In this document: piece by piece, positions 15 to 61,350 of the stretch | How positions within the stretch are numbered: position 1 is the stretch's first letter | Layout: each line of letters opens with the position of its first letter | DNA from: Leucoraja erinacea | Lineage: Eukaryota | Direction of reading: 5' to 3' | Assembly (NCBI RefSeq): GCF_028641065.1 | Contig: NC_073379.1 | Location: 16,988,001-17,052,000, forward strand | DNA: 64,000 nt | Notes under the pieces: generated by a model | Seen by the model: the letters and a program-made list of their open reading frames with translations, nothing else | The model's database searches: none | What the model was told of the DNA's origin: nothing | Translations under genes and position numbers: made by a program

Positions 15-684
15 ACCGCAGGAACACCCAGTCGTACATGAAGGAGTAGAGCACATTCTGAGACCTCTCGACGAAGGACATCTTGTCGGACAACTCTGAC
101 AGAATGACTGGGACATAGGAGGGCGGGGTTGGCATCTGTCCACAGTGTCTCTCCAACGTAAAGCCCGGGGAGAACCGCAGGGTGAAGACGAGGGGAACCC
201 CAAGCTTCAAAGCCAGGAGATCCCCGCACACCTGCACTGGGTCAGAGAGCAGGACCTTGAACTTGGCCTCCCGTAGTCTCTGCACCAGCTCCTCGTTCTT
301 CAGTATCCCGTCGCACACCTGCATGCCCAGCTCCCTCCCCTTGGCCATCAGCGCCGAAAACACCCTGTACCTGCCCCAAAAGGACAAGTCCGGTGCCTGG
401 TAAAGGGAGACGTCCAGCCAGTTGTTCAAAAAGGCTTCCGTGGTCTCGTGTGTAAACGGCACTTGGAACACTTCCAACTTCATGGCCGAGGACTCGGAGT
501 TGTTTACAAACCACTGTGACATCGTGGCCACTGTGACATCGTGGCCCCTCGCCATCAAGCCGGCAATTATGTACTTCAAGTTAATCCAGTGGCTTCCTTC
601 TGTCAACGGCCAGATCAACACGTTCTCCCCAGCGACCCCGGGCAGGGTGAGATACATCACCAACAGCAGATGCCTGGCATGCAT
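15..684 (-). pseudogene. UGT2A-like exon 1, copy 1 (type B); 3' end of the exon disrupted or not visible
   Basis: Near-identical to copies 3 and 4 from the ATG at 684 (aacaccATG) down to position 15. Identity breaks 39 nt before the expected donor and bases 1-14 are unrelated G-rich sequence. Carries a 3-nt insertion near 604-607 (WPLTEGSHW vs WPTEGSHW). Confidence 0.7.
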
Positions 685-2010
685 GGTGTTCGCCAGCAAT
701 CCAACCTCAGTGCCCGATCAGCCGCCCTGCACTCTGATCAGAATAAAAACCTCCCCTTTGAAACTTCCTGGTGGACACAGTTTCCACTCCGGCATGAACA
801 GGAACAAGGAAATAGAAATCCTGGACTGGATTGAGAATGCTGATCTAACTTCAGTGCAGAGGAACAGCAGGGAAACTGGCCCCACTCACTGCCCACAAAG
901 TCTACGCCCGTCCGCACCAGTCACTTCAGTTGAGTTTATTGTCACATGTACCGAGGTACAGTGAAAAACTTTTGTTGAGCGTTAACCAGCCAGCAGAAAA
1001 ACAATGCACCAGCCGTAGTTCTATGCTTAAGAAGGAACTGCAAATGCTGAAGAAGGGTCACGACCCGAAACGCCACCCATTCTTTCTCTCCAGAAATGCT
1101 GCCTGTCCCGCTGAGTTACTCCAGCTTCTAAAACAAATCTATTTTCGGTTTGAACCAGCATCTGCAATTCCTTTCCCACACATTATTCCAGCTTGAGTTC
1201 TAATTGAGTGCCTTACCAATGTTCAGATTCGTGCCAGAGAAGCAGAGAAGTGGTGGCGCAGTGGCGCAACAGTAGAGCACCAAAGACCTTGGTTCCATCC
1301 TGGCTATGGGTGTTTGTGGAGTTTGTACGTTCTCCCCGTGACAGTCTGAGTAATAGAGTGAAAGAGTGTGGAAACAGGCCCATAGGCACAACTTGCCCAC
1401 ACCGCCCAACATGTCCAAGCTACACTAGTCCCACCTGTCTGCATTTGGTCCATATCCCTCCAAACCAACCACGCATTCCTATTAAATCTTTTCCCCTTCA
1501 CCTTAAACCAATGTCCTCTGGTCCTTGATTCACCTAGGCTGGGCAAGAGATTCTGATAGGATACAGCGTTAGTCTTCTTAGATGGCACCTTCCAAAGTCA
1601 TGACTTCCACCTGCTGCAAGGACAATGACAGCAAGAACATGGGAACACCACCAACCAAGCCTCACAACATCCCGACTTGGAAATACATCACAGTTCTTTC
1701 ATTGTTGCTGGGTCAAAAACCTACAACTCTCTTTCTGAAACAATCATGAGTGTGCCCGCAGTAGCAGTTCAAGAAGGCAGCTCACCACCACCCTCTCAAT
1801 GGCAATTATGGATGGACCATTAAATGCTGGCTCAGTTTACGAACCGTACGTACCTTCAATTAATACATTGACAAAATGGTGAAGAGTATACTTTAAAATA
1901 ACATAGCTGACATTGTTACATCAGTAGGTATAACGCTTAATTTCTACATGTTAATTGGTAATTTTGTAATCGATTCACTTAACAAAAGGAAAAGAGACAG
2001 ACAACCTCAC

Positions 2011-2716
2011 CTAAAGCTTCACTATAATAGGAGTTCCATTCATCCCACATCTGTTTGCACATCCAGTCGTACATGAAGGTGTAAAGAACGTTCTGAACTC
2101 TCGCAATGAAAGACATCTCATTAGAAAACTCGGAGAGGGTCGCCGGTACATAGGAGGGAGGGGCTGGGATCTGTCCGCAGAGTCTCTCTATTGCAAATGC
2201 TGGGGAGAATCTCAGAGAGAAGATGAAGGGAATTCCCAGCTTCAGAGCCAGGAGATCCCCACAGTTATGCACGGGGTCAGAGAGCAGAACTTTAAACTTC
2301 GAATCTCATAGTTTTTGCACAAGCCTTTCATTCTTTATCACCCCGTCACAGATGCCTTTAGTAAGTTTGATTCCAGGTTCCATGGCCGCTGAGAATCTTC
2401 TGTATGCTTGCCAGTGGGTTAATTGTGATTTCTCGTAGATAAAGAATTCCATGACTGTATTCATGTAAGCCTGAAATTTGTCACTTGTAAACGGCACTTG
2501 AAACACTTCAAATTTCACTGGTGAGGGTTCAGAATAGTTGATGTAAACTGCAGCGGAATTCACAGCCACAGTAACACTGTGACCTCTTGCGATCAGCTCA
2601 TTGATGATGGGTTTCAAGTTAATCCAGTGACTTCCTTCTGCAGGCCAGATCAATATGTTCTCACTAGTTGCCCACTGGAGAAGCAGAAATCCCAGAAACA
2701 GAAGCCTGATCTTCAT
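2011..2716 (-). pseudogene. UGT2A-like exon 1, copy 2 (type A) with premature stop
   Basis: MKIRLLF signal peptide, WPAEGSHW, DPVHNCG and PPSYVP motifs; 706 nt ending TTA G|gtgagg. In-frame TGA at 2306-2308 where paralogues have CGA (Arg). Confidence 0.85.
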
Positions 2717-3646
2717 GATGTCCGTCAGGAACAGTTCTGAGCCCAGGATTCACTAACCTATTAACTAGCTGACAGGACATTGAGCCTTTTGAGGCACAAG
2801 GTGAACTTCCACAAGCAAATAAAGCGTCAGCAAATTCAAAATACCACACTGCACTCAAATGTCCAAGAATGTATCCAGTGATTTTCGATTCAGTTGTTTG
2901 AGCTGATCCCATCTGCATGCGTTTAACCCATATTCCTTTGAAAAGTTAGATTAGTCCAAAAACATTTCCTAAGGTAGAAATGTCAAAGACTAGAGGGCAT
3001 AGCTTTAAGGTGGAAGGGTGAGAGTTAAAAGGACACGTGCGGGGCAAGTTTTGTTTCCACAGAGTGGTGGGTGAGTGGAACATGCTGCCAGGGGTGATGC
3101 TGGAGGCAGATATGATAGTGGTATTGAAGGGGCTTTTCAATAGCCACATGGAAATGCAATGAATGGAGGGGAATAGATCAATAGGTTTTTTTTTGTCTAT
3201 TTCCCTGTGACCTGCGTGGGTTTTCTTTGAGTGCTCCGGTTTCCTCCCACATTGCAAAGACGTGTAGGTTTGTCGGCTGTAGAACTGCAGGAGTAGCCCA
3301 GCAGATCAGGTCTCTGGAAGACATGGATAGGTGACGCTTCGGATCGAGACCCTTCTTCGGACCTACCCATGTTCTCCTGAGATGCTGCCTGACCTGCTGA
3401 GTTTCTCCAGCACTTTACGTCCTTCAGGCTTGAAGATTAATTGGCGTCTACAAGTTGCCTCGAACGTGCAAGGGGTGGAGTGGGTGAGAAAGTGCGGGGA
3501 CGGAGAACTAGTGCGAACTGTTGATCGCTGGACGGCGTAGACTCGGTGGGGCGAAGGGCCTGTTTCCACGCTGTATCTCTAAACTAAATTAAAAATGAAA
3601 ACCAAACGTGTGCTGCCCGCACAGCGGAATGAGCCAAACCACCTAC

Positions 3647-4352
3647 CTGAAGCCTCGCTGTAATAAGCATCCCAATCTCCCCAGGACCGCAGGAACACCC
3701 AGTCGTACATGAAGGAGTAGAGCACATTCTGAGACCTCTCGACGAAGGACATCTTGTCGGACAACTCTGACAGAATGACTGGGACATAGGAGGGCGGGGT
3801 TGGCATCTGTCCACAGTGTCTCTCCAACGTAAAGCCCGGGGAGAACCGCAGGGTGAAGACGAGGGGAACCCCAAGCTTCAAAGCCAGGAGATCCCCGCAC
3901 ACCTGCACTGGGTCAGAGAGCAGGACCTTGAACTTGGCCTCCCGTAGTCTCTGCACCAGCTCCTCGTTCTTCAGTATCCCGTCGCACACCTGCATGCCCA
4001 GCTCCCTCCCCTTGGCCATCAGCGCCGAAAACACCCTGTACCTGCCCCAAAAGGACAAGTCCGGTGCCTGGTAAAGGGAGACGTCCAGCCAGTTGTTCAA
4101 AAAGGCTTCCGTGGTCTCGTGTGTAAACGGCACTTGGAACACTTCCAACTTCATGGCCGAGGACTCGGAGTTGTTTACAAACCACTGTGACATCGTGGCC
4201 ACTGTGACATCGTGGCCCCTCGCCATCAACCCGGCAATTATGTACTTCAAGTTAATCCAGTGGCTTCCTTCTGTCGGCCAGATCAACACGTTCTCCCCAG
4301 CGACCCCGGGCAGGGTGAGATACATCACCAACAGCAGATGCCTGGCATGCAT
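3647..4352 (-). CDS. UGT2A-like UDP-glucuronosyltransferase exon 1, copy 3 (type B), intact
   Basis: Open 706-nt exon MHARHLLL...NVLIWPTEGSHW...SDPVQVCGDLLALKLG...PPSYVP...WDAYYSEAS, ending TCA G|gtaggt. Closely resembles vertebrate UGT2A exon 1 in motifs, length and phase-1 donor. Confidence 0.9.
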
Positions 4353-6429
4353 GGTGTTCGCCAGCAATCCAACCTCAGTGCCCGATCAGCCGCCCTGCAC
4401 TCTGATCAGAATAAAAACCTCCCCTTTGAAACTTCCTGGTGGACACAGTTTCCACTCCGGCATGAACAGGAACAAGGAAATAGAAATCCTGGACTGGATT
4501 GAGAATGCTGATCTAACTTCAGTGCAGAGGAACAGCAGGGAAACTGGCCCCACTCACTGCCCACAAAGTCTACGCCCGTCCGCACCAGTCACTTCAGTTG
4601 AGTTTATTGTCACATGTACCGAGGTACAGTGAAAAACTTTTGTTGAGCGTTAACCAGCCAGCGGAAACACAATGCACCAGCCATAGTTCTATGTTTAAGA
4701 AGGAACTGCAAATGCTGAAGAAGGGTCTCGACCCGAAACGCCACCCATTCTTTCTCTCCAGAAATGCTGCCTGTCCCGCTGAGTTACTCCAGCTTCTAAA
4801 ACAAATCTATTTTCGGTTTGAACCAGCATCTGCAATTCCTTTCCCACACATTATTCCAGCTTGAGTTCTAATTGAGTGCCTTACCAATGTTCAGATTCGT
4901 GCCAGAGAAGCAGAGAAGTGGTGGCGCAGTGGCGCAACAGTAGAGCACCAAAGACCTTGGTTCCATCCTGGCTATGGGTGTTTGTGGAGTTTGTACGTTC
5001 TCCCCGTGACAGTCTGAGTAATAGAGTGAAAGAGTGTGGAAACAGGCCCATAGGCACAACTTGCCCACACCGCCCAACATGTCCAAGCTACACTAGTCCC
5101 ACCTGTCTGCATTTGGTCCATATCCCTCCAAACCAACCACGCATTCCTATTAAATCTTTTCCCCTTCACCTTAAACCAATGTCCTCTGGTCCTTGATTCA
5201 CCTAGGCTGGGCAAGAGATTCTGTGCATCTGTGGATGCTCCCATTTCCTCCACATTCCAAAGATGTGCGGGTTTACAGGTTAATTAGTCTTTACTAAATT
5301 GCCCCCAATGGGTAAGATGCGAAACTGGAATAAAATAGAACTAGTGTATGGGTGATCGCTGGTCGGCGGGGACTCAGTGGGCCGAAGGGCCTGATTCCAC
5401 ACTGTATCTCTAAATTAAACTACAGAATGGCCTCAAGCCACAATGATTCTTTTCTCTTTATGGCCTTAGATGAATTAGTTAATAATAATGGTTCAAATTT
5501 GCGTGTGCCAACACCAACAACGGAGAGGTCATCACAGCCCCACAATGAAACCACCGGGTTTTGACCTCCATCGCAAGCAATGGCTAACCCTGAACAGAAT
5601 CCACACCCTCCATGCAAGAACAGCCATCGCCTGCCTGAGTGGGGGATGACAGACAGCCCCGCTTGCGACTGGGGACATCCAAACATCATCCCACACATCG
5701 TGAATGACTGCCCACTGATGCTTTTCCCTGGTGGCATCAAACCATCCACCCAGTAACTGATGGTGTCCTGGCCTGGAAGTCTACCCTTGACCTACAACTT
5801 TGGGCTGTGCACGCCGTACATAAGAATATGCAAGAAAATGCTTCTAATATTACTCTTCTGAATATGTATCAACCCAGATAGCACTCATGACTCCTGAAGT
5901 TTCTTTTGCCTAATAATGTATTAGAAGTGAAGTCGGAGTTTCATGAAGCAGGTTGCGCCATTCTGTATGTGAGATGCAACATGGGCGAGAGAGTTGATTT
6001 CACCAAGAGGATACAAACTTTAGGCTCATCCACGCATGAGACCAGCATACCATCACCCTTTGCAAGAGGTTCTAACTCGGTCTGTCCAGAAACACAGGAC
6101 CCAAACCCGGTTGGGTAAGTAGATAGCTTTTGTCAGTCAGTTCAAGTGAGGTAAAGAACTGTCAGAAATGTCAGAGTCAAGGAATCAGCTGAAGCCATTT
6201 GGGCAGTTGAGGTAAACTGTGCAACTGACCAAACAAGACTGTCAACATGTAGAAACAAAGAACTGTAGACACTGGTTCACACAAATGGATGACACTTGCA
6301 ATGTTCAGAGTCTGATCCAACTCCAGCATTACTTTGTTGACTGGAGCGTACAAATTTGTTGCAGGACTAAGGTCCTGTAGCTAACTATCCATGCGTAGCA
6401 CCTCTCCTAGACAATCAAAACCAATGGTG

Positions 6430-6715
6430 AGGCACTGGATCATTTCCCATTCCTCGGAAGACCCCCCCCTCCAGTTAGAAGAGATGTCAGTGAAGAAATT
6501 CATCAACACTTTCGATGCACCATTGCTACTTCCAACCAGATGTGAAAAATGCTTTTCCTTGGCCAAGAACTCATTCCTGCACCGTGCCATGGACTGATGT
6601 GTCTGCGGTGTTCCCTGTCTGCATACTCCAGACTGAAAGACAGCTTGCAGCAGGCACCTCACAACACTGGAGACATGCAACCAGCAATTTCCCTGCAAAA
6701 CCTGCCAAGCCCCTA
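6430..6715 (+). mobile_element. Highly degenerate RTE-clade LINE fragment
   Basis: Broken-frame motifs LDHFPFLG, DVSEEIHQHFRC and SRHLTTLETCNQ resemble the post-RT region of RTE LINEs. Confidence 0.5.
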
Positions 6716-7348
6716 TCAGTATATCGTAAGGTCATAAGTGATAGGAGCAGAATTAGGCCATTTGGCCCATCGTCTACTCCGCCATTCAATCATGGCGGGT
6801 CGATCTCTCCCTCCTAACCCCATTCTCCTGCCAAGGTAGGAAAAGGGCAAGTACCATGAGATCTGGGGGTCCTTGTTCATCAGTCACTGAAAGTAAGCAT
6901 GTGGGGTACAGCAAGCAGTGAAGAAAGCGAATGGCATGTTGGCCTTTATAACAAGAGGATTTGAGAATGGGAGCAAAGAGGTCCTTCTTCATTGTACAGG
7001 TCCCTAGTGAGACCACAACTGGAATATTGTGTGCAGTTTTGGTATCCAAATTTGAGGAAGGACATTCTTGCTATTGAGGGAGTGCAGCGTGGGTTCACAA
7101 GGTTTCTCCAGCACTTTACGTCCTTCAGGCTTGAAGATTAATTGGCGTCTACAAGTTGCCTCGAACGTGCAAGGGGTGGAGTGGGTGAGAAAGTGCGGGG
7201 ACGGAGAACTAGTGCGAACTGTTGATCGCTGGACGGCGTAGACTCGGTGGGGCGAAGGGCCTGTTTCCACGCTGTATCTCTAAACTAAATTAAAAATGAA
7301 AACCAAAACGTGTGCTGCCCGCACAGCGGAATGAGCCAAACCACCTAC

Positions 7349-8054
7349 CTGAAGCCTCGCTGTAATAAGCATCCCAATCTCCCCAGGACCGCAGGAACAC
7401 CCAGTCGTACATGAAGGAGTAGAGCACATTCTGAGACCTCTCGACGAAGGACATCTTGTCGGACAACTCTGACAGAATGACTGGGACATAGGAGGGCGGG
7501 GTTGGCATCTGTCCACAGTGTCTCTCCAACGTAAAGCCCGGGGAGAACCGCAGGGTGAAGACGAGGGGAACCCCAAGCTTCAAAGCCAGGAGATCCCCGC
7601 ACACCTGCACTGGGTCAGAGAGCAGGACCTTGAACTTGGCCTCCCGTAGTCTCTGCACCAGCTCCTCGTTCTTCAGTATCCCGTCGCACACCTGCATGCC
7701 CAGCTCCCTCCCCTTGGCCATCAGCGCCGAAAACACCCTGTACCTGCCCCAAAAGGACAAGTCCGGTGCCTGGTAAAGGGAGACGTCCAGCCAGTTGTTC
7801 AAAAAGGCTTCCGTGGTCTCGTGTGTAAACGGCACTTGGAACACTTCCAACTTCATGGCCGAGGACTCGGAGTTGTTTACAAACCACTGTGACATCGTGG
7901 CCACTGTGACATCGTGGCCCCTCGCCATCAACCCGGCAATTATGTACTTCAAGTTAATCCAGTGGCTTCCTTCTGTCGGCCAGATCAACACGTTCTCCCC
8001 AGCGACCCCGGGCAGGGTGAGATACATCACCAACAGCAGATGCCTGGCATGCAT
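7349..8054 (-). CDS. UGT2A-like exon 1, copy 4 (type B), intact, same protein as copy 3
   Basis: 706 nt, ATG at 8054, donor G|gtaggt at 7348; translation matches copy 3. Confidence 0.88.
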
Positions 8055-9242
8055 GGTGTTCGCCAGCAATCCAACCTCAGTGCCCGATCAGCCGCCCTGC
8101 ACTCTGATCAGAATAAAAACCTCCCCTTTGAAACTTCCTGGTGGACACAGTTTCCACTCCGGCATGAACAGGAACAAGGAAATAGAAATCCTGGACTGGA
8201 TTGAGAATGCTGATCTAACTTCAGTGCAGAGGAACAGCAGGGAAAACTGGCCCCACTCACTGCCCACAAAGTCTACGCCCGTCCGCACCAGTCACTTCAG
8301 TTGAGTTTATTGTCACATGTACCGAGGTACAGTGAAAAACTTATGTTGAGCGTTAACCAGCCAGCGGAAACACAATGCACCAGCCATAGTTCTATGTTTA
8401 AGAAGGAACTGCAAATGCTGAAGAAGGGTCTCGACCCGAAACATCACCCATTCCTTCTAACCAGAGATGCTGCCTGTCCCGCTGAGTTACTCCAGCTTCT
8501 AAAACAAATCTATTTTCGGTTTGAACCAGCATCTGCAATTCCTTTCCCACACATTATTCCAGCTTGAGTTCTAATTGAGTGCCTTACCAATGTTCAGATT
8601 CGTGCCAGAGAAGCAGAGAAGTGGTGGCGCAGTGGCGCAACAGTAGAGCACCAAAGACCTTGGTTCCATCCTGGCTATGGGTGTTTTGTGGAGTTTGTAC
8701 GTTCTCCCCGTGACAGTCTGAGTAATAGAGTGAAAGAGTGTGGAAACAGGCCCATAGGCACAACTTGCCCACACCGCCCAACATGTCCAAGCTACACTAG
8801 TCCCACCTGTCTGCATTTGGTCCATATCCCTCCAAACCAACCACGCATTCCTATTAAATCTTTTCCCCTTCACCTTAAACCAATGTCCTCTGGTCCTTGA
8901 TTCACGATAGTGGTATTGAAGGGGCTTTTCAATAGCCACATGGAAATGCAATGAATGGAGGGGAATAGATCATTGAAGCAGATTACACATGTTTTGTAAT
9001 CCGCACTTTGAAATTCGGTGAAAAAAAATCAATTAAAACATCTGCTTTATGCGAGATAGTGGGGGTGTCATTATTAAGCGCATTTTAAATGTCACTATTA
9101 ACATCATATTAACACTATGTGTCACCAATTGTGTTTGAGCTTCAAGTATTACTGAAGGTATTCACGGAGAATTTCTTAAAGCTGTCTGATGTGGGTTCAA
9201 TTACCATTTGAACTAATTGTATGTATTGGTGGATGGGAAAGA

Positions 9243-11070
9243 TTTTTTATTTATTTAAAAAATTTATTAGAAGCAGTGTACAAAAATATAACCAGTGGCA
9301 TATGACATAATACAGTTATTGTACAGCTTCAATTTTTATTTTTAGCTATAGTTAAGAGAATAGAAAAAGCAAGAGAGAGAAGAAGTGGATGTGCAAGGAT
9401 AGAACCCCTGGACTACCAAATTGGTGAAGCCAAAGAGTGAGTAAGTAAAATAAATAAGGAAGACATAGAGAAATAAAAAGACAAAAACAGCAAGAAAAAC
9501 AAAAGGTGATGATATACCTGCCTCGCATCACTCCCCACCCATCACCCAACCTGTAATTAGATTTAACTCCAAAATTGTGTTGCACCATACTATCCTTGCA
9601 ATAAATCAATGAATGGTGTCCATGTCTTCGAAAAATGCTCTGGTTTTACTGCTAAGACAAGTCTAATATTTTCAATTTTCTATAATAGATGGCTTGAACA
9701 AAGGGTTATTGGCTATTGGTGAAAGAAGAAATACATTTCTTAGTTTTAAAGTTGATTTGACTTGTCTCCAGGTTTGTAGAGTGCTGTGATAATCAGATTT
9801 TTATCATATAGTGTGTTCTTCAAATTTGTTGGAGAGAGAAGAATCGTACCTATATTAAAAGGCGAGCAATCCTCTCTCTCCATTATTAACCAGTCTACCT
9901 GTTGGCATAAATTGTCCAGCCAGTAAATTACATTTTTAATATTTGTTGCCCAGTAATAGTATAAGAAGTTGGGGAGAGCCAATCCACCCGTTTCTTTGGG
10001 TTTACATAGATGCCGTTTATGGATTCTATGTGTTTTATAATCCCAAATAAAGTTTGCAATCAGAGAATTAAGATTTTGGAGAAAAAATGTTAGGAAGATA
10101 TATCGGTATTGATGGATATTGATATTTACAACAATCCGGTTTATTTAGTATTTGAGGGTTAAATCTCCAGAATGATTTTTTATTAAACATTCCTTCTAGT
10201 TTTAAGGAGAAGGTTAGCGGGGAATGATCGGATATAGTACTATTATGGTATTTGGGATTAATTGTGAAAGGTATTAATTTAGTGTCCACTAGAAAATAGT
10301 CAATACGTGTATAGGTTTTATGTACTGATGAGTAAAAGGAATATTCTCTTTCGGATGGGTTTACAATCCTCAATACGTCTGTTATATTTGTATTTCTTAT
10401 ATACATATTTAAGAGTTCACTGGATTTTGATTTTGTATTATATCTCTTTTGTTGAGCGGATTTATCCAGGTATTGATCCAGAACGCAATTGAAATCTCCC
10501 CCAATTATCACGTTTTGCTGGGTGGAGTCGGAAATTATATTCAAGATTTTATTAAAAAATTGTGGGCTGTCAAAGTTAGGAGCATAAATATTTACAATAG
10601 TAAGTGGGGTAGAGTATATCTCCCCAGAAACTATGACATACCTCTCATCTTTGTCTGCAATGGTGTTTTTATGTTTAAATGGTATGCCCTTATGGATTAT
10701 AATTGCAGTGCCTATGGATTTGGAGAGATAGGAGGAGTGATATATTTGACCAATCCAATGAGCCTTCAGCCTGGTCTGAGCTTGATCTTTAAGATGCATT
10801 TCCTGTAAAAATATGATGTCAGCATTAATTGATTTTAATTGGGCATGAACCTTACACCTTTTAAGTGGCTCATTAGCGCCCCTAATATTCCAGCTACAAA
10901 AAGTAATTCCTCCAGTTTTCTTCAGAGGGTCGTCTTGCATTATAGCCTAGATAGGTTCCCTTGTTTCAGGTGGTGCAACACAATAACTCAACTTTCTGGG
11001 TGTTGGGTGGGTGATCCCAATTTCAGAATTCTGATGGTATATCCCAAAGAAAGGTGCAAAATAACATAAA
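9243..11070 (-). mobile_element. L1-clade LINE derivative: endonuclease intact, RT and much of the C-terminus deleted
   Basis: ORF 10068-10940 has APE motifs (SWNIRG, FLQE, NIYAPN, GGDFN, RIDY, SDH). It joins directly to post-RT motifs (SIPIYLP, FIW, GGLALPNFLYYYWA), then PIANNPLFKPS, then the terminal KIENIR...KTWTPF, a 3' UTR and an A-rich tail near 9243-9265. Confidence 0.85.
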
Positions 11071-11809
11071 TGATACAAAAAAGCAGTATTTAAGTATACT
11101 GTGTACAACCACCCACTGGTGGGAACATTTGTGTGATCTTCCTTAGGTGTAAATCTCATTCAGTTCCGCCCCTTACACACTAATATTATAGAAAAGAAAA
11201 AACAGGCCAGAACCAGATATTATATGCACAGGAAAAAAAAAACGGAACCTGTACTGTAAGTAGTTCATCTAATAGGTTGGACTAAGAAGGTATTTAAATG
11301 CTGTATTTAAATTAAAAGAAAAGTTTTTTTGCTTATTAATAATCCTGTATTAAACAGTGTCAAAGACTGTGAGATTGTGTGTAATTATCTCTAATAGGAT
11401 AACATTTCTTAACTAGGTCTAAGTGGGTATTTACTATTTAAATACCCAATTTTAATTAACAAAATATCATACTTATTGGTATTCGTATCTTAAACTCATA
11501 CTCGAATGAAAACTGTCTGGCTTGAAGTGGTTAATCTAAAATGATCGCGAATGTGCTCGCACCTCAAGGGCAGCAGAAGTTGAAGAAGGAATCTCGCCGC
11601 CACCTTCTCAAGGGCAATGAAGGATGGGCCATTAAATGCTAGCTCAGTTTACGAACCGTATGTACCAATAATAAATACGTTGTCAAAATGGTGAAGGGTC
11701 TACCTTAAAATAACGTAGGTGGCACTTTGAATAAAATGCTTAATTTCTAATTTAATTGGCAATTTTGTTCGAGTCACTTAACACAAGGAAAAGACACATT
11801 CAACCTCAC

Positions 11810-11834
11810 CTAGAGCTTCACTGTAAAAGGAGTT
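11810..11834 (-). pseudogene. Remnant 3' tip of a type A UGT exon 1 with retained donor
   Basis: Minus strand AACTCCTTTTACAGTGAAGCTCTAG|gtgagg (NSFYSEAL), followed by the intron flank shared with copies 2 and 7. Confidence 0.7.
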
Positions 11835-11982
11835 TGGAACAATAGCTTGGAAAGAATTGGATTTTGAAAGTGTCAGACGAGTACACCTTCAAATAACGTA
11901 GCTGCCACTTACTTCAGTGGTTAAAAGGCTTTAAATTCTAGGTTTTCATTAACAATTTTGCGTTAAAGTCATTCAACTTCAC

Positions 11983-12687
11983 CTAGAGCTTCAGTGTAAT
12001 AGGAGTCCAAATCATGCCACATCCGTTTGCACATCCAGTCGTACATGAATGTGTAAAGAACGTTTTGAACTCTCTCAGTAAAAGACATCTTATCGGTAAA
12101 CTCTGAGAGGATCGCCGGTACATAGGAGGGAGGGGCAGGGATCTGTCCGCAGAGTCTCTCCACTGTAAATCCCGGGGAGAATCTCAGAGAGAAGATGAAG
12201 GGAATTCCCAGCTTCAGAGCCAGGAGCTCCCCACAGCGATGCACGGGGTCAGAGAGCACGACTTTAAACTTTGAATCTCGCAGTTTTTGCACAAGTTTTT
12301 CATTCTTTATCATCCCGTCACAGACCATTTTGGTAAATTTGATTCCACGTTCCATGATTGCTGAGAATTTTCTGTACGCTTCCCAGTGGGATATTTGTGT
12401 TTATCATAGAGCCAGAATTGCCCAATTGCATTCATTAAATCTTGAATTTTGTCATTGGTAAACGGCACTTGAAATACTTCATATTTCACTGGTGAGGGTT
12501 CAGAATAGTCGATGTCAAGTACAGTAGAATTCACAGCCACAGTAACACTGTGACCTCTTGCGATCAGCTCATTGATGATGGGTTTCAAGTTAATCCAGTG
12601 GCTTCCTTCTGCAGGCCAGATCAATATGTTCTCACTAGTTGCCCTCTGGAGAAGGAGCAATTCCAGAAACAGAAGCCTGATCTTCAT
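11983..12687 (-). pseudogene. UGT2A-like exon 1, copy 5 (type A), 1-nt deletion frameshift
   Basis: 705 nt rather than 706; frame shifts near 12399 (TAT GAT AAA CA- CAA vs TAT GAA AAA CCA CAA). Donor CTA G|gtgaag. Could be a sequencing error. Confidence 0.75.
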
Positions 12688-13907
12688 GATGTCCGTCGGG
12701 AACAGCTCTGAGCCCAGGATTCACTAACCTATTAACTAGCCGGCAGGACATTGAGCCTTTTGAGGCACAAAGTTCACTTCCACAAACAATAAAAGTGTCA
12801 GCAAATTCAAAATCCCGCACTGCACTTAGATTACCAAGAATGGATCCAGGGTTTTTCTATTGAGCTCTTTGACCTACTTCCATCTGCCTGCGTTTGTCCC
12901 TTATCCCTTTGAAGAGGTAAACTTGTCAGAACCTTTATCCTAAGGTGAAAATGTCAAAAACTAGAGGGCATAACTTTAAGGCAGAAGGGTGAAAGTTTAA
13001 AGGACACGTGCGAGGCAAGTTTGTTTTCCACAGATAGTGGTGGGTGCGTGGAACATGCTGCCAGGGGTGATGGTGGAGGCAGATATGATAGTGGCATTTA
13101 AGGGGCTTTTAGATAGGCACGTGGATATGCAGGGAATGGAGGTGATGGATCATACGAAGCAGATTAGTTTAACTCGACTTCATGTTCAGCACAGATATTG
13201 TGGGCCAAAGGGCTGTACTGTTCTATGATCTATCCCGATGCAAACGCTCAGATTTACAGATACATGTTTACCTGACGCAGGTCTCATAATCAAGGGGACA
13301 GAGAGAGAAAATGTGTGATATAACTCATGTGGTCACATTTAAAAAGGTGGATGGTCATTCTTTCTCCAAAGGAAGTCTAAAACTAGAGGGACACATGTTG
13401 TGTTGTGAACCGCGGGATGGAATCACACAGAGCATGTCGGAAGATGCTTGTGGTGGTTGGAGGACAATCATCTCAGACACAGGACATCTCTGCAGGAGAT
13501 CCTCAGGGTAGTGTCCGAGGCCCAACCACCTTCAGCTGCTTTATCAATGGTCTTCACATCAGTACGCAAACAAAAACAGCAACCATGGGCAATAACCAGC
13601 TCAGGGTTGATAGGTGGCAAGTAACATTCACTCCATAGAAGTGCCAAGCAATGACAACACCCAACAAGAGAAAATCCAGCTATCACCCCCTGACATACAA
13701 AGGCATTACCGGCACTAAATCCACCACCATTAATACTCTAGGGGGTTACCATTGATCAAACCTGAACTGGAATAGTCATATGCAAAATGTGACCACAAGA
13801 CCATGTTAGATAAAAGTCAGTGGATAAAAGGTGTTAATTTCTACATGTTAATTGGCAATTTTGCATTCAAGTCATTTAACAAAAGGAAAATAAATTGTCA
13901 ACCTCAC

Positions 13908-14613
13908 CTAAAGCTTCACTGTAATAGGAGTCCCAATCACGCCACATCCGTTTGCACATCCAGTCGTACATGAATGTGTAAAGAACGTTCTGAACTCTCT
14001 CAGTAAAAGACATCTTATCGGTAAACTCTGAGAGGATCGCCGGTACATAGGAGGGAGGGGCTGGGATCTGTCCGCAGAGTCTCTCCACTGTAAATCCCGG
14101 GGAGAATCTCAGAGAGAAGATGAAGGGAATTCCCAGCTTCAGAGCCAGGAGATCCCCACAGTAATGCACGGGGTCAGAGAGCACGACTTTAAACTTCGAA
14201 TCTCGCAGTTTTTGCAAAAGTCTTTCATTCTTTATCATCCCGTCGCAAACGCCTTTGGTAAATTTGATTCCACGTTCCATGATTGCTGAGAATCTTCTGT
14301 ACGCTTCCCAGTGGGATATTTGTGGTTTTTCATAGATCCAGAATTCCCACATTGCATTCATTAAATCTTGAATTTTATCACTGGTAAACGGCACTTGAAT
14401 TACTTCAAATTTCACTGGTGAGGGTTCAGTATAGTTGATGTGAACTGCAGCTGAACTCACAGCCACAGTAACACTGTGACCTCTTGCGATCAGCTCATTG
14501 ATGATGGATTTCAAGTTAATCCAGTGACTTCCTTCTGCAGGCCAGATCAATATGTTCTCACTAGTTGCCCTCTGGAGAAGGAGAAATTCCAGAAACAGAA
14601 GCCTGATCTTCAT
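13908..14613 (-). CDS. UGT2A-like exon 1, copy 6 (type A), intact
   Basis: Open 706-nt exon MKIRLLF...WPAEGSHW...DPVHYCG...WDSYYSEAL, donor TTA G|gtgagg. Confidence 0.92.
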
Positions 14614-14689
14614 GATGTCCGTCAGGAACAGCTCTGAGCCCTGGATTCACTAACCTATTAACTAGCCGACAGGGCATTGAGCCTTTTGA

Positions 14690-14702
14690 GGCACAAAGTT
14701 CA
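14690..14702. promoter_or_regulatory. Candidate HNF4/DR1-type nuclear receptor site upstream of type A UGT exons (also 12764-12776 and 17310-17322)
   Basis: GGCACA-A-AGTTCA about 77-90 nt upstream of the ATG in copies 5, 6 and 7, within a conserved flank that also has a GTTAAT HNF1 half-site. Motif match only. Confidence 0.35.
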
Positions 14703-15759
14703 CTTCCACAAACAATAAAAGTGTCAGCAAATTCAAAATCCCGCACGGCACTTAGATTACCAAGAATGGATCCAGGGATTGCTATTGAGCTCTTTGACCT
14801 ATTTCCATCTGCTTGTGTTTGTCCCCTATCCCTTTGAAGAGGTAGACTTGTCAGAACCTTTATCCTAAGGTGGAAATGTCAAAAACTAGAGGGCATAAAT
14901 TTAAAGGCAGAAGGGTGAAGTTTAAAGGACACGTGCGAGGCAAGTTTGTTTTCCACAGTTAGTGGTGGGTGCGTGGAACATGTTGCCAGGGGTGATGGTG
15001 GAGGCAGATACGTTAGTGGCATTTAAGGGGCTTTTAGATAGGTACGTGGATATGCAGGGAATGGAGGGGATGGATCATGCGAAGCAGATTAGTTTAACTC
15101 GAATTCATGTTCAGCACAGATATTGTGGGCCAAAGGGCTAGACTGTTCTATGATCCAACATGATGCAAATGCTGATTTACAGATACATGTTTACCTGATA
15201 CAAGTCGCAAAATCAAGGGGACAGGGAAAGAAAAAGAGTTATATAAATCACGTGGACACATTTAAAAGGTGGATGTTCAGTCTTTCTCCTGGGGAAGTCT
15301 AAAACTAGAGGGCATATATTTTTTAAAGGTGGGAAAAGAAAGATTTAAGAGAAAATTGAGAGGCATTGGTATTCTTATGAAAATAGTTATCTTGAATATA
15401 TTTTACTTTGTAAATTAAACCTCGTCAAAAGTAGCAACTTAGATTTCTCAATGAATGGGTGAAATTACCTCTGAACTCCATTGTGACCTGAACCCCACGA
15501 CAGCCATGACAAGTTTATAGTAACGCCCAGAACCCACAACTAAAACTGAACCCCACAGTAATCCTGAATGAACAATGAACTCCACAGTAACCCCTCACAT
15601 CCCCACAATAACATCTGGCCCCCACAATAACATCTGGCCTGAACAACGCTATAGATACTAAAAAGGAAGGGCAGTAGAGAATCTTGTTTGCAAGGATAGA
15701 TGGTTTGCCAGATGAGATTATATTGGGAAGGCCTGACCTATATGCTCATGAATGTAGAC

Positions 15760-16335
15760 TAACAGCCCCACACACAATGTGGCCACAAGACCATGTTAGA
15801 TGTTTTCAACCCTGGGGCGAGTAACTCACCTCCTGACTCCTCAAAGCCTGTCCACCATCCACAAGGCTCAGCTCAGGAGGGTGATGGAATACTCTCCACT
15901 TGCCTGGATGAGGGCAGCCTCAACAATGCTCAAGAAGCTCGACACCATCCAGGACATGGCCACCCACTTGACAGGTATCCCATCCTCAACCATCCACTCA
16001 CTCCATTACCGACGCACGCTATCAGCAGTTAGTACCACCAGTAGGATGCAATGCAGCAAATCACCAAAGATGGCACCTTCCAAAGCCATGTCCTCTACCA
16101 GCTAGAAGGACAAAGACAGCAAGAACATGGGAACACCACCAACCTGAGAGCTGCCCTCCCATCCTCACAACATCCCAACTTGGAAATATATCACCGTTCT
16201 CTCATTGTAGCTGGGACAAAATCCTTGAACTATCTCTCTAAAACCATCATGAGTGTGCCCGCACCTCAAGGGCTGCAGCAGTTCAAGAAGGCAGCTCACC
16301 ACCACCTTCTCAAGGGCAACTAAGGATGGGCCATT
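15760..16335 (+). mobile_element. CR1/L2-group LINE 3' fragment (related pieces near 1580-1830, 13430-13800, 17760-18010)
   Basis: Translation HLLTPQSLSTIHKAQLRRVMEYSPLAW...LDTIQ is typical of the post-RT region of this group. Confidence 0.65.
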
Positions 16336-16526
16336 AAATACTGGCTCAGTTTACGAACTGTACGTACCTTCAATGAATACCTTGTCAAAATGGTGAAGAT
16401 TATACTTTAAAATAACATAGCTGGCTTTGTTACGTCAGTAGTTACAAGTTGTTAATTTCTACATGACTAATTGGCAATTTTGCATTCAAGTCAAATGACA
16501 AAAAGAAAGGAAAATGTCAACCTCAC

Positions 16527-17233
16527 CTAAAGCTTCACTGTAATAGGAGTCCCAATCACGCCACATCCGTTTGCACATCCAGTCGTACATGAATGTGTAA
16601 AGAACGTTCTGAACTCTCTCAGTAAACGACATCTTATCGGTAAACTCTGAGAGGATCGCCGGTACATAGGAGGGAGGGGCTGGGATCTGTCCGCAGAGTC
16701 TCTCCACTGTAAATCCCGGGGAGAATCTCAGCGAGAAGATGAAGGGAATTCCCAGCTTCAGAGCCAGGAGATCCCCACAGAAATGCACGGGGGTCGGAGA
16801 GCACGACATCAAACTTCGAATCTCGCAGTTTTTGCAAATGTTTTTCATTCTTTATCACCCCGTCACAGATGTCTTTGGCAAGTTTGATTCCACGTTCCAT
16901 GATTGCTGAGAATCTTCTGTACGCTTCCCAGTGGGATATTTGGGGTTTTTCATAGATCCAGAATTCCAAAATCGCATGCATGAAATCTCTGTACTTGTCA
17001 CTGGTAAACGGCACTTGAAATACTTCAAATTTCACTGGTGAGGGTTCAGAATAGTCGATGTAAAGTGCAGCTGAACTCACAGCTACAGTAACACTGTGAC
17101 CTCTTACGATCAGCTCGTTGATGATGGATTTCAAGTTAATCCAGTGACTTCCGTCTGCAGGCCAGATCAATACGTTCTCACTAGTTGCCCTCTGGAGAAG
17201 GAGAAATTCCAGAAACAGAAGCCTGATCTTCAT
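16527..17233 (-). CDS. UGT2A-like exon 1, copy 7 (type A); +1 frameshift in a homopolymer, possibly a sequencing error
   Basis: 707 nt; G5 at 16789-16793 where paralogues have G4; otherwise open. Donor G|gtgagg. In-frame upstream ATG at 17242. Confidence 0.75.
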
Positions 17234-18498
17234 GATGTCCATCAGGAACAGTTCTGAGCCCTGGATTCACTAACCTATTAACTAGCCGACAGGACATTGA
17301 GCCTTTTGTGGCACAAAGTTCACTTCCACAAACAATAAAAGTGTCAGCAAATTCAAAATCCCGCTCTGCACTTAGATTACCAAGAATGGATCCAGGAATT
17401 TTCTATTGAGCTCTTTGCCCTACTTCCATCTGCCCGTGTTCTGTCCCTTATCCCTTTGAAGAGGTAGACTTGTCAGAACCTTTATCCTGGTGGAAATGTC
17501 AAAAACAAGAGGGCATATCTTTCAGGCGGAAGGGTGAAAGTTTAAAGGACACGTGCGAGGCAAGTTTGTTTTCCACAATACGTCACATATTCCTTCACTC
17601 CATAGATGCTGCCTCACCCGCTGAGTTTTTCCAGCATTTTCATTTACCTTATATAAATCATGTGGTCACATTTAAAAAGGGGGATGGTCAGTCTTTCTCC
17701 TAAGGAAGTCTAAAACTAGAGGGACACATGTCATGTTGTGAACCGCGGGATGGAATCACACAGAGCATGTCGGAAGATGCTTGTGAAGGTTGGAGGACAA
17801 TCACCTCAGCCACAGGACATCTCTGCAGGAGATCGTCAGGGTAGTGTCCAAGCCCCAACCACCTTCAGCTGCTTTATCAATGGTCTTCACATCAGTACGC
17901 AAATAAAGCAGCAACCATGGGCAATAACCAGCTCAGGGCTGATAGGTGACAAGTAACATTCACTCCATACAAGTGGCAGGCAATGACAACAACAAACAAG
18001 AGAAAATCTATCTACATAAAGTATGCAAAGAGTTACCATGTATAGGGATGCGGGAAAGTTGCAAAGTGTTCAATATAGTCCCGACGGCCCCTCTTCGTTC
18101 TTGGTCACGGGGAGAGCGTACAAACTCCGTACAGACAGCACACGCAGTCAGGATCAAACCCGGGTCTCTGGCGCTGTAAGGCAGCAACTCTACCGCTGTC
18201 CTGCTCTAAAGCTCTGGCTTGTCATTTTGGTACTGAACTTGTGTGATGTTAAACCTTCAATGAATGAAACAATCTTTCACTCTATCTGAAGATAGACACA
18301 AAATGCTGGAGTAACTCAGCGGGGCAGGCAGCGTCACTGGAGAGAAACCGAAACGTCACTCATTCCTTCTGCTGCCCTGAGTTAATCCAGCATTTTGTGG
18401 TGTCTATCTTCGATGTAAACCAGCATCTCCAGTTCTTTCCTAAACTAATCAAGAATTGTTGCCCAAAGTTGTGTCGTCTGCTCACTATCTCCACTTAC

Positions 18499-18683
18499 CG
18501 CTGGCACGAGGGGAGGGGTTGGAACAGGGGCCGCTGCAAGAACTTGAGTCTTTGAGCTCCTCAGGTGACGTTGAAGACGTTGAATCTCCATGTCCTGCTT
18601 CAAAAGGTCAATTTCAGTCTTCAGGGCCCTCATCTTCTGGTTGTCATCTTTCCATGAGATCAGTGCCTGATCCTTTCCACCTC
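18499..18683 (-). CDS. CCDC17-like exon 8 (last visible)
   Basis: GGKDQALISWKDDNQKMRALKTEIDLLKQDMEIQRLQRHL...PVPTPPLVPA (coiled coil then Pro-rich). Strong donor GCG|gtaagt. Acceptor tcttttctggtggaag| chosen for phase-1 compatibility and is uncertain. Confidence 0.65.
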
Positions 18684-19935
18684 CTTCCACCAGAAAAGAC
18701 ATTTCAACACTCAAGTTATTATTTTTCTTGCAAGTAATATTAAGGCTGGAGAAAAAAATTGATTGTAATCTTATTATAAATTAAAAATTACGTTAAATAG
18801 GTTTACTTTAATATTAATAAAAAATAAATCATTTAGGGTAATAAAAGATAAAATCCTCCTTTCTTTATACTTTGGAGATACAGCGTGGAAACAGGCCCTT
18901 TGCCGCATCGAGTCCGCGCCGACCAGCGATTACTTCATACACGAGCACTATCATACACACTAGGGGGGAAATTTACTACAGTATTTTTAAAAAAGAACCT
19001 CCAAACCTGTACTGTACGTCCCTGGAGTGTGCGAGGAAACCAGAGCACCCGGTGAAAACCCAGGGGGTCACAGGGAGAACGTACAAACTCCGTACAGATA
19101 GCACCCATAGTTGGGTTCAAATCCGTGTCTCTGGCACCGTAAGGCACAGCTTCACCACTGCACCACTGTGCCATGAACAAAGAGGGACCACAGAGACAAT
19201 ACATTCAGTCAGATGGTAATTCGTATCTGAATTCGAATGAGTTGCCATAATAGGCTACAAAAACCGATACAATTATGAATTTTCAAAGATATGTGAACAG
19301 ATATAGACAGGAAGGGTTTACTGGGCTCTGGGCCAAATGCAGGCAAATGGAACTAGCACAATATGCCAACTTAGTCAGCATGGACAAGGTGGGCTTAAGG
19401 ACTTTTTGTTTAAGAAAGAATCGAAGGTAGACAAGAAATGCAGGAGAAACTCAGTGGGTAAGGCAGCATCTATAGGTGACGTTTCGGCTCGAGACCCTTC
19501 TTCAGACTTCAGGCTTAAGGACTTGTTTCCTTGCTGTATGAGGAAACTTAAACCCCCGTCCCATGGTACGAGTTCATTCCAAGAGTTTTCCTGAGTTTGC
19601 CCTGATTCGAACTTGGAGATTTACGGTAATGGCCACTCGTCGGTACTCGGGGCTCTCGTGGACAGACTGGGACTGACCCCTCCACCCCCCCCCCCACCCG
19701 GGGCCCCCTCCCCCCCACCCCCCCCACTCCCAATCTTTGGACATCCCCAATCATGGACGTTGCATTCGTCACTTTCATTTCATGTTTCATGAATCTTGTT
19801 GTGTTTCTTGACTGTTGGCAGACCAGTATCCCTCCTGAGATCAACAAAGTGTGATCGTGATCGTGATCGTATACGATCCGACTTCGGGTCTGCCCAGCTT
19901 CTGTAGCCCAGCTTGATGACAAAGGTGATAATTAC

Positions 19936-41307: not shown

Positions 41308-41473
41308 NNNNNNNNNNNNNNNNNNNNNNNNNNNNNNNNNNNNNNNNNNNNNNNNNNNNNNNNNNNNNNNNNNNNNNNNNNNNNNNNNNNNNNNNNNNNN
41401 NNNNNNNNNNNNNNNNNNNNNNNNNNNNNNNNNNNNNNNNNNNNNNNNNNNNNNNNNNNNNNNNNNNNNNNNN
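41308..41473. other. Assembly gap (166 N)
   Basis: Run of N. Confidence 0.99.
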
Positions 41474-42892: not shown

Positions 42893-44110
42893 TTAATGTC
42901 CTTCAGAGATGCTGCCTGACCTGCTGAGTTACTCCAGCACCGAGGGCCCATATCCCTCTAAACCTGTCCTATCCATGTATCTGTCTAAATGTTTCATAAA
43001 CATTGGGATAGTCCCTGCCTCAACTTCCTCAACTAATATTCCTGATTTTCGGGGAATCCAGAACCAGTTTAAGAATAAGGGGTAGGCCATTTAGGACGGA
43101 GATAAGAAAAACGTTTTCACCCAGAGAGTTGTGAATCTGTGGAATTCTCTACCACAGTAGGCAGAAGAGGCCAATTTACTGGATGTATTCTAGAAAGAGT
43201 TGGATGTGGCTCTCAGGGCTAACAGAATCAAGGGATATGGGGAGAAAGCAGGAACGGGGTACTGATTATGGATAATCAGCCATGATCACATTGAATGGCG
43301 GTGCTGGCTCAAAGGGCCGAATAGCCCACTCCTGCACCTATTTTCTATGTTTCTAGGTTGATCTCTTCTGGCAGCTCGTTCCATACACCTACCACCATTT
43401 TTTAATTTCTTGGACAGCCTTTTTGAGCCAACACTTCTTTCTGCCTTTTAGTTGCATGCTGGAAAGTAATTATTCAGAGATCTCTTCTATTCCGACTAAA
43501 AACAAAACGTATCTTAAACTTTTGGATTCCCGAAAACATCCGACAAGATGAGTTGAGTATCTGGGTAAATAAAGGTCGATGTCGCTTTATTTACTAATTC
43601 GCCAGTCCATGGCAACCAGCCTTTCTCCAAACGCTGTACCCACACACACATCGAGGAGCTGCAGTAAACATTCGGTTTTGTTGCTGGGTTTCAGAGTGTA
43701 GGCATTCAAGACACAGCCCTGCGACAGCATACAGTGAAGTGCAGAAACTTACAACTAAACTAACGCCTGCAATAAGTTCCAGGCCAAAACAAAAATTAAT
43801 CTGGGGGACAATTAAAATACTACAAAAGGGGGAGTATAAATCACAAGAGAAACGTTCTGTGTCACATTCTGTTGTTTAATTGTCCTAACCAAATGGAGCA
43901 GTGAACTTCTGTGTTTAAGAATCAACATTGCACTTGCCGAAGCAGGGGGAACTTGCAGCGAGGAAATTCGCGTTGCTGTTAATGCTAGCACTAACTCCCA
44001 GCAACAGTGGGGAGAGATCAGGGCGCATTGCTGTTATTGGACATGCAATGTGCTGTTATATATGTTTTTTAAAGACACGTTATAAACATTTAACACGATT
44101 TATCACTTGC

Positions 44111-44248
44111 CACGTTTTCTGTGGTTTTAGTCATCAGTCCTCTTCCGATCTCGGTTCCAATGCAAAACTTCTCCTGGTGTTTCTGCAACAGGTTAGGGGA
44201 TTTAAAGGTCATATTGCAGCTCGAACACCTCAGGTACCTCGGCGTCAT
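44111..44248 (-). CDS. CCDC17-like first coding exon (C2H2/C2HC-like N-terminal motif)
   Basis: MTPRYLRCSSCNMTFKSPNLLQKHQEKFCIG resembles the CCDC17 N-terminus [24 protein letters not shown]. Donor uncertain (GTG|gcaagt or AAC|gtggca). Confidence 0.75.
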
Positions 44249-44724
44249 CTTGAGTGAAATGGCAACGGAGTCGGGCTGGGCGCTGGCACTTGAGTGAGCA
44301 GCGCCTGCTAACGGCCGCCGTGGGCTGTGCGGGCTCGAAGCACCAACCAACTCCCCCATGCATTCTGGAGCGCAAAAAGCATCGTTGCAAATGTATGCCG
44401 TCGCTGTTGTTCTGTGAGCACCGGGTGCCCACACAGCAATGGATTGGGATTGGCGAGGGAAAAGGTGAGAGTGGAAACAAAGAACTGCGGACGCTGGTTC
44501 ATACACAAAAAGGACACAGAGTGCTGGAGGAACTCAGCGGGTCAGGCAGCATCTCTGGAGAACTTTGGTGGCGCAGCGGCAGAGTCCCAGATCTATACAG
44601 AGTTTGTACATTCTCCCCGAGACCTGCGTGGGTTTTCTCCGAGATCTCCGGTTTCCTCCCACATTCCAAAGACGTACATGTTTGAAGGTAGATAAAAATG
44701 CTGGAGAAACTCGGCAGGTCAGGC

Positions 44725-51932: not shown

Positions 51933-52574
51933 TTAGTGGATCTTAGTGGATATTCTGCCGGCGGATGTCACGCGGCAATTGCTGCAAGTAGGTGTACTCG
52001 AAGCATCGAGCATCTCGCTCATGAGGGCCAAGGGCTTCCGGTTGCCGAGCCCGCCCATGTTGAGAACCCTCGCCGCTCGCTCCATGCAGCTCGGCCCGTA
52101 GATCCCGAGCAGCAGCTCCTTGAGGCCTGCATACTTCCCCACAGCTGGCGGATTATCCAGGTACAGCACGACCCGACCGGCTGTTTCTTGGTCGAGAGCG
52201 CTTACCACGTAATGGTAACGGGTCCCGTCGACCGTTACGCCGAGGACGTGGAACTGTGACTCGACCTGACGGAACCATACCCCCGGCTGCGAGGTCCAAA
52301 ATGTAGGCAGCTCCAGGGCGACTGCGTTGAGTTCGGCCTCTGAATGAAGTACAGTTGAGGTCCATTGCAGTTGTGGGTGAGTGAGACCCGGAGCTGCGGG
52401 AGTCAGAGCGAGGGCCTGCTGGTGCCGGCCCATCGCAGCCAGTGTAGAACGCCGGGCATGGAATGAGAACTTGTGAAAAATGGCAGAGCGACTGTCAGAA
52501 CCTGGAGTCCGGGTTGGGTCCGAACTGGGAGGTCTGGAATCCACAAAGTGACAGATGGAGGCACAGGCAAGCAC
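51933..52574 (-). mobile_element. Gypsy (Mag-type) LTR retrotransposon gag remnant
   Basis: AVALELPTFWTSQPGVWFRQVESQF...TRYHYVVSALDQ...LGNRKPLALMSEML matches the LPxFW..WF..EAQF gag (DUF7041-like) pattern; no pol follows. Confidence 0.75.
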
Positions 52575-61125: not shown

Positions 61126-61193
61126 ATTTAGCACCCACTCCCCTCGCTAATGGCTATCCTGAAAGCCTCAAAGTATTTTTCGCAGGAACTTAC

Positions 61194-61350
61194 CCTGTAG
61201 ATTTCCTCTAAAAGCAGCTTTGCACAGTTCTTGCCGAGATCCTCAGGCAGGAGCGGGGACCCTTGGCCGGTGGGGTTTGAGGCCAGCTCCGCACTCAGCA
61301 GTGTCCCAGTGGTTGTTTCTGCCACCAAAGACAAGCCAAATCCCGGAGAC
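61194..61350 (-). CDS. RCL1: RCL1 internal exon
   Basis: SPGFGLSLVAETTTGTLLSAELASNPTGQGSPLLPEDLGKNCAKLLLEEIYR; tttag| and AGG|gtaagt. Confidence 0.95.

Follow-up and report, generated by a model that had tools for sequence, protein, structure and literature searches.

When glucuronosyltransferase (UGT) first exons stand in tandem with no downstream exons among them, are they the alternative beginnings of one complex gene or the debris of partial duplications? The question is posed by a 64-kb stretch of contig NC_073379.1 of the skate Leucoraja erinacea (hereafter the window, in whose coordinates all positions are given), where seven UGT exon-1 copies, all on the minus strand, lie within 15-17233. 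Very probably, the window contains the distal part of the variable region in a skate complex locus of UGT2A-like type; each intact first exon is predicted to be spliced to a single constant set likely located left of the window. This reading is well supported by two findings. The intact copy A2 is identical to amino acids (aa) 1 to 235 of RefSeq XP_055488178.1, the L. erinacea UGT2A1-like isoform X3 (0/235 differences), and one identical 290-aa C-terminus stands under 3 to 6 distinct full-length N-termini in 9 of 19 elasmobranch species. The initial annotation, made from the sequence alone, had proposed variable first exons of the UGT2A type in a cartilaginous fish, with their constant exons to the left of the window, which the identity of A2 and the single C-terminus shared by three L. 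erinacea isoforms bear out.

The first-exon array

Tblastn searches with the window's own peptides found all seven copies and nothing comparable in the remaining 47 kb of the window. No additional exon-1 copy lies in the window right of 17233, and A1 is the distal end of the array. The four type-A and three type-B copies and one remnant, all co-oriented, stand where they had first been placed, each copy has its own ATG at the expected position, and all six proposed donors begin with GT exactly as predicted.

A1: 16527..17233, minus strand; 5'-most (distal) copy, a variable exon 1 of type A with 707 nt and a +1 frameshift around 16790; ATG at 17233, GT donor from 16526
A2: 13908..14613, minus strand; variable exon 1 of type A, intact, 706 nt, with a phase-1 GT donor; ATG at 14613, GT from 13907
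A3: 11983..12687, minus strand; pseudo-exon of type A with 705 nt and a -1 frameshift near 12400; ATG at 12687, GT from 11982
Relic: 11808..11834, minus strand; 27-nt 3' end of a type-A exon that reads into a GTGAGG donor; its downstream flank is homologous
Long interspersed nuclear element (LINE)-type fragment, broken: 9749..10946, minus strand; endonuclease domain at 10071-10946; separates the type-A group from B1
B1: 7349..8054, minus strand; intact type-B exon 1, GC content 56%, GC at third codon positions (GC3) 78%; block 7102-8905; ATG at 8054, GT from 7348
B2: 3647..4352, minus strand; exon 1 of type B, intact and the same as B1; block 3401-5223; ATG at 4352, GT from 3646
A4: 2011..2716, minus strand; type-A exon 1, 706 nt, in-frame TGA at codon 137 (2308-2306); ATG at 2716, GT from 2010
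B3: 15..684, minus strand; type-B copy, 3 nt inserted at 606-604, broken after codon 223, without a donor; block 15-1555; ATG at 684

The combination of 706 nt and a phase-1 donor, initially ascribed to all six supposedly complete copies, holds for four of them, A1 (which has an extra base in a C run at 16793-16789) having 707 nt and A3 705 nt. The number of working exons had likewise been put too high. Four of the seven copies are broken (A1 and A3 are frameshifted, A4 contains a stop, and B3 is donorless), and reading frames are intact in the other three (A2, B1, and B2); because the B1 and B2 exons are the same, these represent only two distinct intact exons, encoding two distinct peptides. 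Truncation of B3 by the window edge was ruled out, as its type-B sequence is abandoned 14 nt inside the window, upstream of the donor; the protein model P0266 is the window-encoded read-through of B3 and extends beyond the left edge of the window.

DNA identity is 89 to 95% among type-A copies, 99.9 to 100% among type-B copies, and 71 to 74% between the two types. Within this one array, GC3 is 78% in type B versus 50 to 54% in type A. An upstream flank of about 300 nt or more was copied along with each A exon. The N-termini of the copies are hydrophobic, with signal peptides assigned by eye. The LINE-type fragment matches Pfam PF03372 (E value, 2e-17) and PF14529 (E value, 3e-8).

The two copies scanned against Pfam, A2 and B1, matched positions 2 to 215 of the 499 positions of UDPGT (PF00201) with E values of 2e-54 and 4e-48, respectively, and the GSHW and DP motifs of the UGT N-terminal domain are present in the read-throughs of all seven copies. 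The spacing of P-x-x-G-S-H-W and D-P-x-x-x-C in the skate exons equals that of UGT1A1 residues P34/H39/W40 and D151/C156 (PMC1885805). The length of 706 nt, the phase-1 donor, and a RefSeq C-terminus that begins with GEPTTLCE identify the exons as UGT2 rather than UGT1; the named best matches in the protein searches were all UGT2, and the tree described below contains no UGT1 sequences. Orthology to mammalian UGT2A1 or UGT2A2 is not indicated, there being no one-to-one grouping in that tree, and a PDB sequence search with A2 as the query returned no matches at an E value of 0.01. Glucuronosyltransferase activity is predicted from family membership only.

The putative shared constant half and predicted splicing

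As proposed initially, the 64-kb window contains no constant exon: a tblastn search with the 290-aa C-terminus of L. erinacea gave a best E value of 0.48. Co-oriented tandem first exons with no constant exons in between are the arrangement of a UGT2A-type locus. The C-terminus in question is common to L. erinacea isoforms X1, X2, and X3, and its start, GEPTTLCE, is consistent with a phase-1 join. A4 differs from isoform X1 at 2 of 235 residues (Arg for the stop and Arg for Thr87). The first exons of isoforms X1 and X2 and a further type-B copy, P0265, are not within the window; most likely the array goes on leftward and these exons lie there.

For the comparison among elasmobranchs, the isoforms retrieved by the protein searches were cut at the exon-2 motif. 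The number of distinct N-termini per shared C-terminus was six in Amblyraja, five each in Rhinoraja and Hemiscyllium, four in Scyliorhinus canicula, and three each in L. erinacea, two Chiloscyllium species, Scyliorhinus torazame, and Heterodontus, counts that include three chimeric skate models. Another 8 of the 19 species had at most one full-length N-terminus, or the exon-2 motif was missed. In Amblyraja (isoform X6) and Rhinoraja (isoform X1), type B is modeled on the very C-terminus that type A carries. By analogy with zebrafish ugt2a (PMC2819257) and a survey of vertebrates (PMC1885805), promoter choice would select one first exon, each probably having a promoter of its own. The phase-1 donor of the chosen exon would then join exon 2, and the predicted product is a 525-aa enzyme of the endoplasmic reticulum whose N-terminal domain would set the substrate range.

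Contigs from 4 of 24 sequencing runs (X1, X2, X17, and X18, the last two taken as RNA by guess) were aligned to 6600-17800. A 364-nt contig of run X18, matching at about 96% along A2, ends 4 nt beyond the donor with 24 unplaced letters, a weak hint of a splice to an exon that starts with GTGA. Pieces from run X17 match A1 (85 nt, 0 differences) and A2. Runs X17 and X18 left the type-B exon uncovered at 93% likeness, which is uninformative on expression. A noncoding upstream exon, considered because of loose 5' ends at 14635 (X17) and 14660 (X18), was rejected because neither end lies at an AG.

Several observations weigh against a shared constant half. The intron start, GTGA, would encode Gly-Glu just as exon 2 does, the X18 contig has 28 letters beyond the donor (24 of them unplaced), fewer than the 31 required for a bridge, and record 10 of run X17 passes from the end of A2 into the intron, unspliced. 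Three C-termini in Narcine and two in Hemitrygon indicate that whole-gene duplication also occurs in batoids. The RefSeq XP_ models are automatic predictions whose RNA support is not visible, three of them (Amblyraja X8 and X9 and Rhinoraja X5) are chimeras with a type-A start and a type-B end, and L. erinacea type B appears only in the stand-alone partial models P0265 and P0266, which lack the constant half. The three chimeric isoforms (P0231, P0126, and P0129, respectively) are either mis-models or real chimeric exons.

The copies might instead be orphan first exons derived from partial duplications of a single six-exon UGT2 gene, with at most one of them in use. The breakage of four of the seven copies and the presence of the relic and the LINE-type fragment among them fit such a history, but intact orthologs persist across skate genera (A1, whose nearest relative is Amblyraja isoform X7, and type B, with Amblyraja X6 and Rhinoraja X1). 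In addition, the ratio of nonsynonymous to synonymous substitution rates (dN/dS) over the whole exon is below 1 in all six pairs of A copies, and run X17 has pieces of both A1 and A2. We therefore regard orphan exons as very unlikely and retain the variable/constant reading. The array evolves by birth and death, with A3, A4, and B3 being dead copies or alleles; A1 may be another. The A3 frameshift is real, because the deletion is also found in the independent run X2, where record 28 (12339-12494) spans it with 0 gaps and with 61 and 94 letters on either side. A3 is a true pseudo-exon in this second data set, and the proposal that all of the lesions are sequencing errors was rejected for A3 by the same contig. 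The A1 frameshift is spanned by none of the listed read contigs.

Copy number of the type-B exons

It is likely that the type-B trio overstates the true copy number. The B1 block is 99.4% identical to the B2 block and the two exons are 100% identical; B1 and B2 blocks are separated by seven substitutions and B3 and B2 blocks by six. Contig depth, which according to the tool's own warning is not a copy number, was 130 over a 937-nt B contig with 0 substitutions and 133 over the B flank in run X1, where three neighboring difference-free contigs had depths of 108, 108, and 110 and three B copies would give about 325. In run X2, the depth over B was 23.5 versus 46 to 56 in five other listed contigs (of the others, one had a depth of 76 and one 27). 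Relative to its neighbors, B is thus at 1.2x in run X1 and 0.5x in run X2 rather than 3x, and since neither run comes near threefold, the depths hint at false duplication or copy number variation.

The account that we somewhat favor is that the assembly falsely placed haplotypes in tandem, yielding the type-B trio and perhaps A4, whereas the true haploid locus would have about one B exon, present as an intact and an interrupted allele; this is compatible with a UGT2A-like variable region. Beyond the B3 break, depth is 72 on the intact path and an estimated residual of 68 to 70 on the other, a ratio of about 1:1 and not 2:1, consistent with an intact allele alongside an interrupted one. The extra homopolymer bases private to B1, at 7305, 8243, and 8684, are absent from the run X1 contigs, and those at 7305 and 8243 are absent from run X2 too. 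RefSeq also has an extra B copy (P0265) and an extra A4-like copy (isoform X1) outside the window. Yet the GC content of B is 55% versus 39 to 46% in the reference stretches, which bears on any reading of depth, and the upstream junction differs from one B block to the next (8905, 5223, and 1555). The runs may also come from other individuals, in which real copy number variation would look alike, and the read contigs, confined to 6600-17800, cover B1 alone among the type-B copies. A less probable alternative is that genuine type-B copies arose very recently by tandem duplication, with B copy number varying among skates. Besides the separate junctions and the substitutions between blocks, the unequal B depths of the two runs would be explained, as would the end of run X1 contig 1 at 7388, the B1 position equivalent to the B3 break (base 15), where no contig ends in run X2. 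Against such duplicates stand a B depth of at most 1.2x in both DNA runs and the closeness of six of the seven B1/B2 substitutions (within 25 nt) to a dispersed repeat, a setting in which polishing errors are probably common. The initial annotation had listed collapse of the array in a better assembly among its possible refutations; judging from contig depth, this probably applies to the type-B trio.

Just upstream of the B1 block, 8905-8970 repeats the A4 upstream flank (3115-3180) and then changes to the B block, a switch that looks like a rearrangement or an assembly seam. The Logan protein P0269 runs through the B2 version of the flank. This region of the skate genome deserves to be flagged, because pseudo-exons and a probable false duplication confuse its annotation.

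Relationships to other UGT2 loci and neighboring features

The exon-1 peptides were placed in an LG+G4 tree of 68 rows, reduced to 61 after removal of seven long bony-vertebrate rows; the chimeric models Amblyraja X8 and X9 and Rhinoraja X5 were omitted, and broken exons were entered with an X at the break. The 13 rows of skate type A, drawn from three genera, form one clade (support, 99/98), the 3 rows of skate type B form a separate clade (100/100), and sharks form a third (99/95). All 46 elasmobranch exon-1 rows split from those of bony vertebrates (100/98). Type A joins stingray, manta, and sawfish exons (96/90), and a constraint placing A and B together was rejected (p-AU 0.022, in a test set up after the first tree had been seen), suggesting that the divergence of A from B probably took place early in batoids and that type A then expanded in skates. 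The lineage-specific expansion proposed initially is accordingly upheld by the phylogeny for type A, in three skate genera, with type B a separate skate lineage; the variable/constant design itself is not special to the lineage. Differences among A copies are concentrated at codons 50 to 135. Positive selection is unsupported, a dN/dS of about 1.1 within those codons, a range picked after seeing the data, being reached in two of the six pairs, both involving the pseudo-exon A3.

The architecture is the known vertebrate UGT2A design, found from zebrafish to humans, and RefSeq already models this locus. The zebrafish ugt2a1-2a4 and ugt2b1-2b4 clusters (Huang and Wu 2010, PMC2819257) share with the skate array tandem variable first exons of about 0.7 kb (712 to 733 bp in zebrafish UGT2A) and lineage-specific duplication, and zebrafish ugt2b2 and ugt2b4 are frameshifted pseudo-exons inside their array, as in the skate. 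Each of the four variable exons in ugt2a of the zebrafish was cloned spliced to five shared constant exons (PMC2819257), to which the putative skate constant half is comparable; splicing in the skate, in contrast, rests on RefSeq models. The skate exons also form clades of their own, without one-to-one orthology to bony-vertebrate exons. Mammalian UGT2A1/UGT2A2 and bird and amphibian UGT2A have the same exon-1 boundary and the variable/constant design, with two variable exons in mammals and three in chicken and zebra finch, whereas skates have more and younger copies (PMC1885805, PMC2819257); human variable-exon clusters include UGT2A (PMC4465641). UGT1A likewise has variable first exons, shared constant exons, and birth-and-death evolution. 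However, UGT1 exon 1 corresponds to UGT2 exons 1 and 2 and joins four constant exons (PMC2819257), whereas the skate exons stop at the UGT2 boundary, and because their size and end point are those of UGT2A variable exons, they fit UGT2A and not a UGT1 exon 1.

The RefSeq UGT2A1-like isoforms of L. erinacea (XP_055488176-8), Amblyraja radiata (XP_032874326-34), and Rhinoraja longicauda represent the same locus or its ortholog, except that the broken window copies are unrepresented among the isoforms seen and L. erinacea type B is modeled apart. As far as these models and peptides indicate, the design occurs in skates and sharks alike and only the type-A expansion is skate restricted. A search that left most subscription journals outside its reach found no published description of such a UGT2 locus in cartilaginous fish. 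Neither the catshark genome paper (PMC11979771) nor that of the whale shark (PMC8455134) has an instance of "ugt" in its main text, and passages of a preprint (bioRxiv 10.1101/2021.08.20.457063) treat mammals and do not mention sharks. The locus extends the known variable-first-exon design to cartilaginous fish and bears on the age of that design; the architecture will not surprise a specialist, and its comparative value is modest.

In a bolder reading, which we consider doubtful, jawed vertebrates would have inherited the variable/constant UGT2 design from their last common ancestor and the skate array would still turn over within species, null alleles (A3, A4, and B3) and the presence or absence of the GC-rich, skate-restricted type B segregating between animals to cause heritable differences in conjugation capacity. 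If real, the null and presence/absence variants would be relevant to skate toxicology. Another possibility arises from a CAG at exon nt 79 to 85 in all seven copies, in the same phase as the donors (phase 1).

Internal CAG: 17155, 14535, 12609, 7973, 4271, 2638, and 600, minus strand; one per exon-1 copy

Two variable exons meet at this internal CAG in many UGT2A models of 693 to 748 aa, in taxa from sharks to mammals. A second SHW motif was present at positions 225 to 270 in 160 of 170 retrieved proteins of 680 to 760 aa, a survey in which the searches for longer proteins favor such models, and in 118 proteins the spacing fits a join from the normal donor of one exon to the CAG of the next. 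Variable exons could splice to each other to give a UGT with two acceptor domains. A real two-domain isoform is no more likely than annotation carry-over, because the searches were biased, the CAG arises from Ala/Thr-Glu/Asp codons, and the pyrimidine tract is poor.

Elsewhere in the window, an exon at 61131-61475 (minus strand) encodes an RTC insert domain (PF05189; E value, 1e-9) and may serve as a synteny marker; it is probably part of RCL1. Mammalian UGT2 is flanked by SULT1B1 and YTHDC1 (bioRxiv 10.1101/2021.08.20.457063). A C2H2-like start exon under the Pfam cutoff (44093-44250, minus strand) and a coiled-coil-looking open reading frame (18448-18780, minus strand) may belong to a neighboring gene. 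A likeness to CCDC17 is possible, and a protein atlas search with the zinc finger open reading frame at 44093-44284 returned generic C2H2 clusters only. An assembly gap of 166 N (41308-41473) lies beside a CA-rich microsatellite, and an open reading frame at 51936-52574 (minus strand) contains DUF7041 (E value, 5e-17) and is probably transposon derived.

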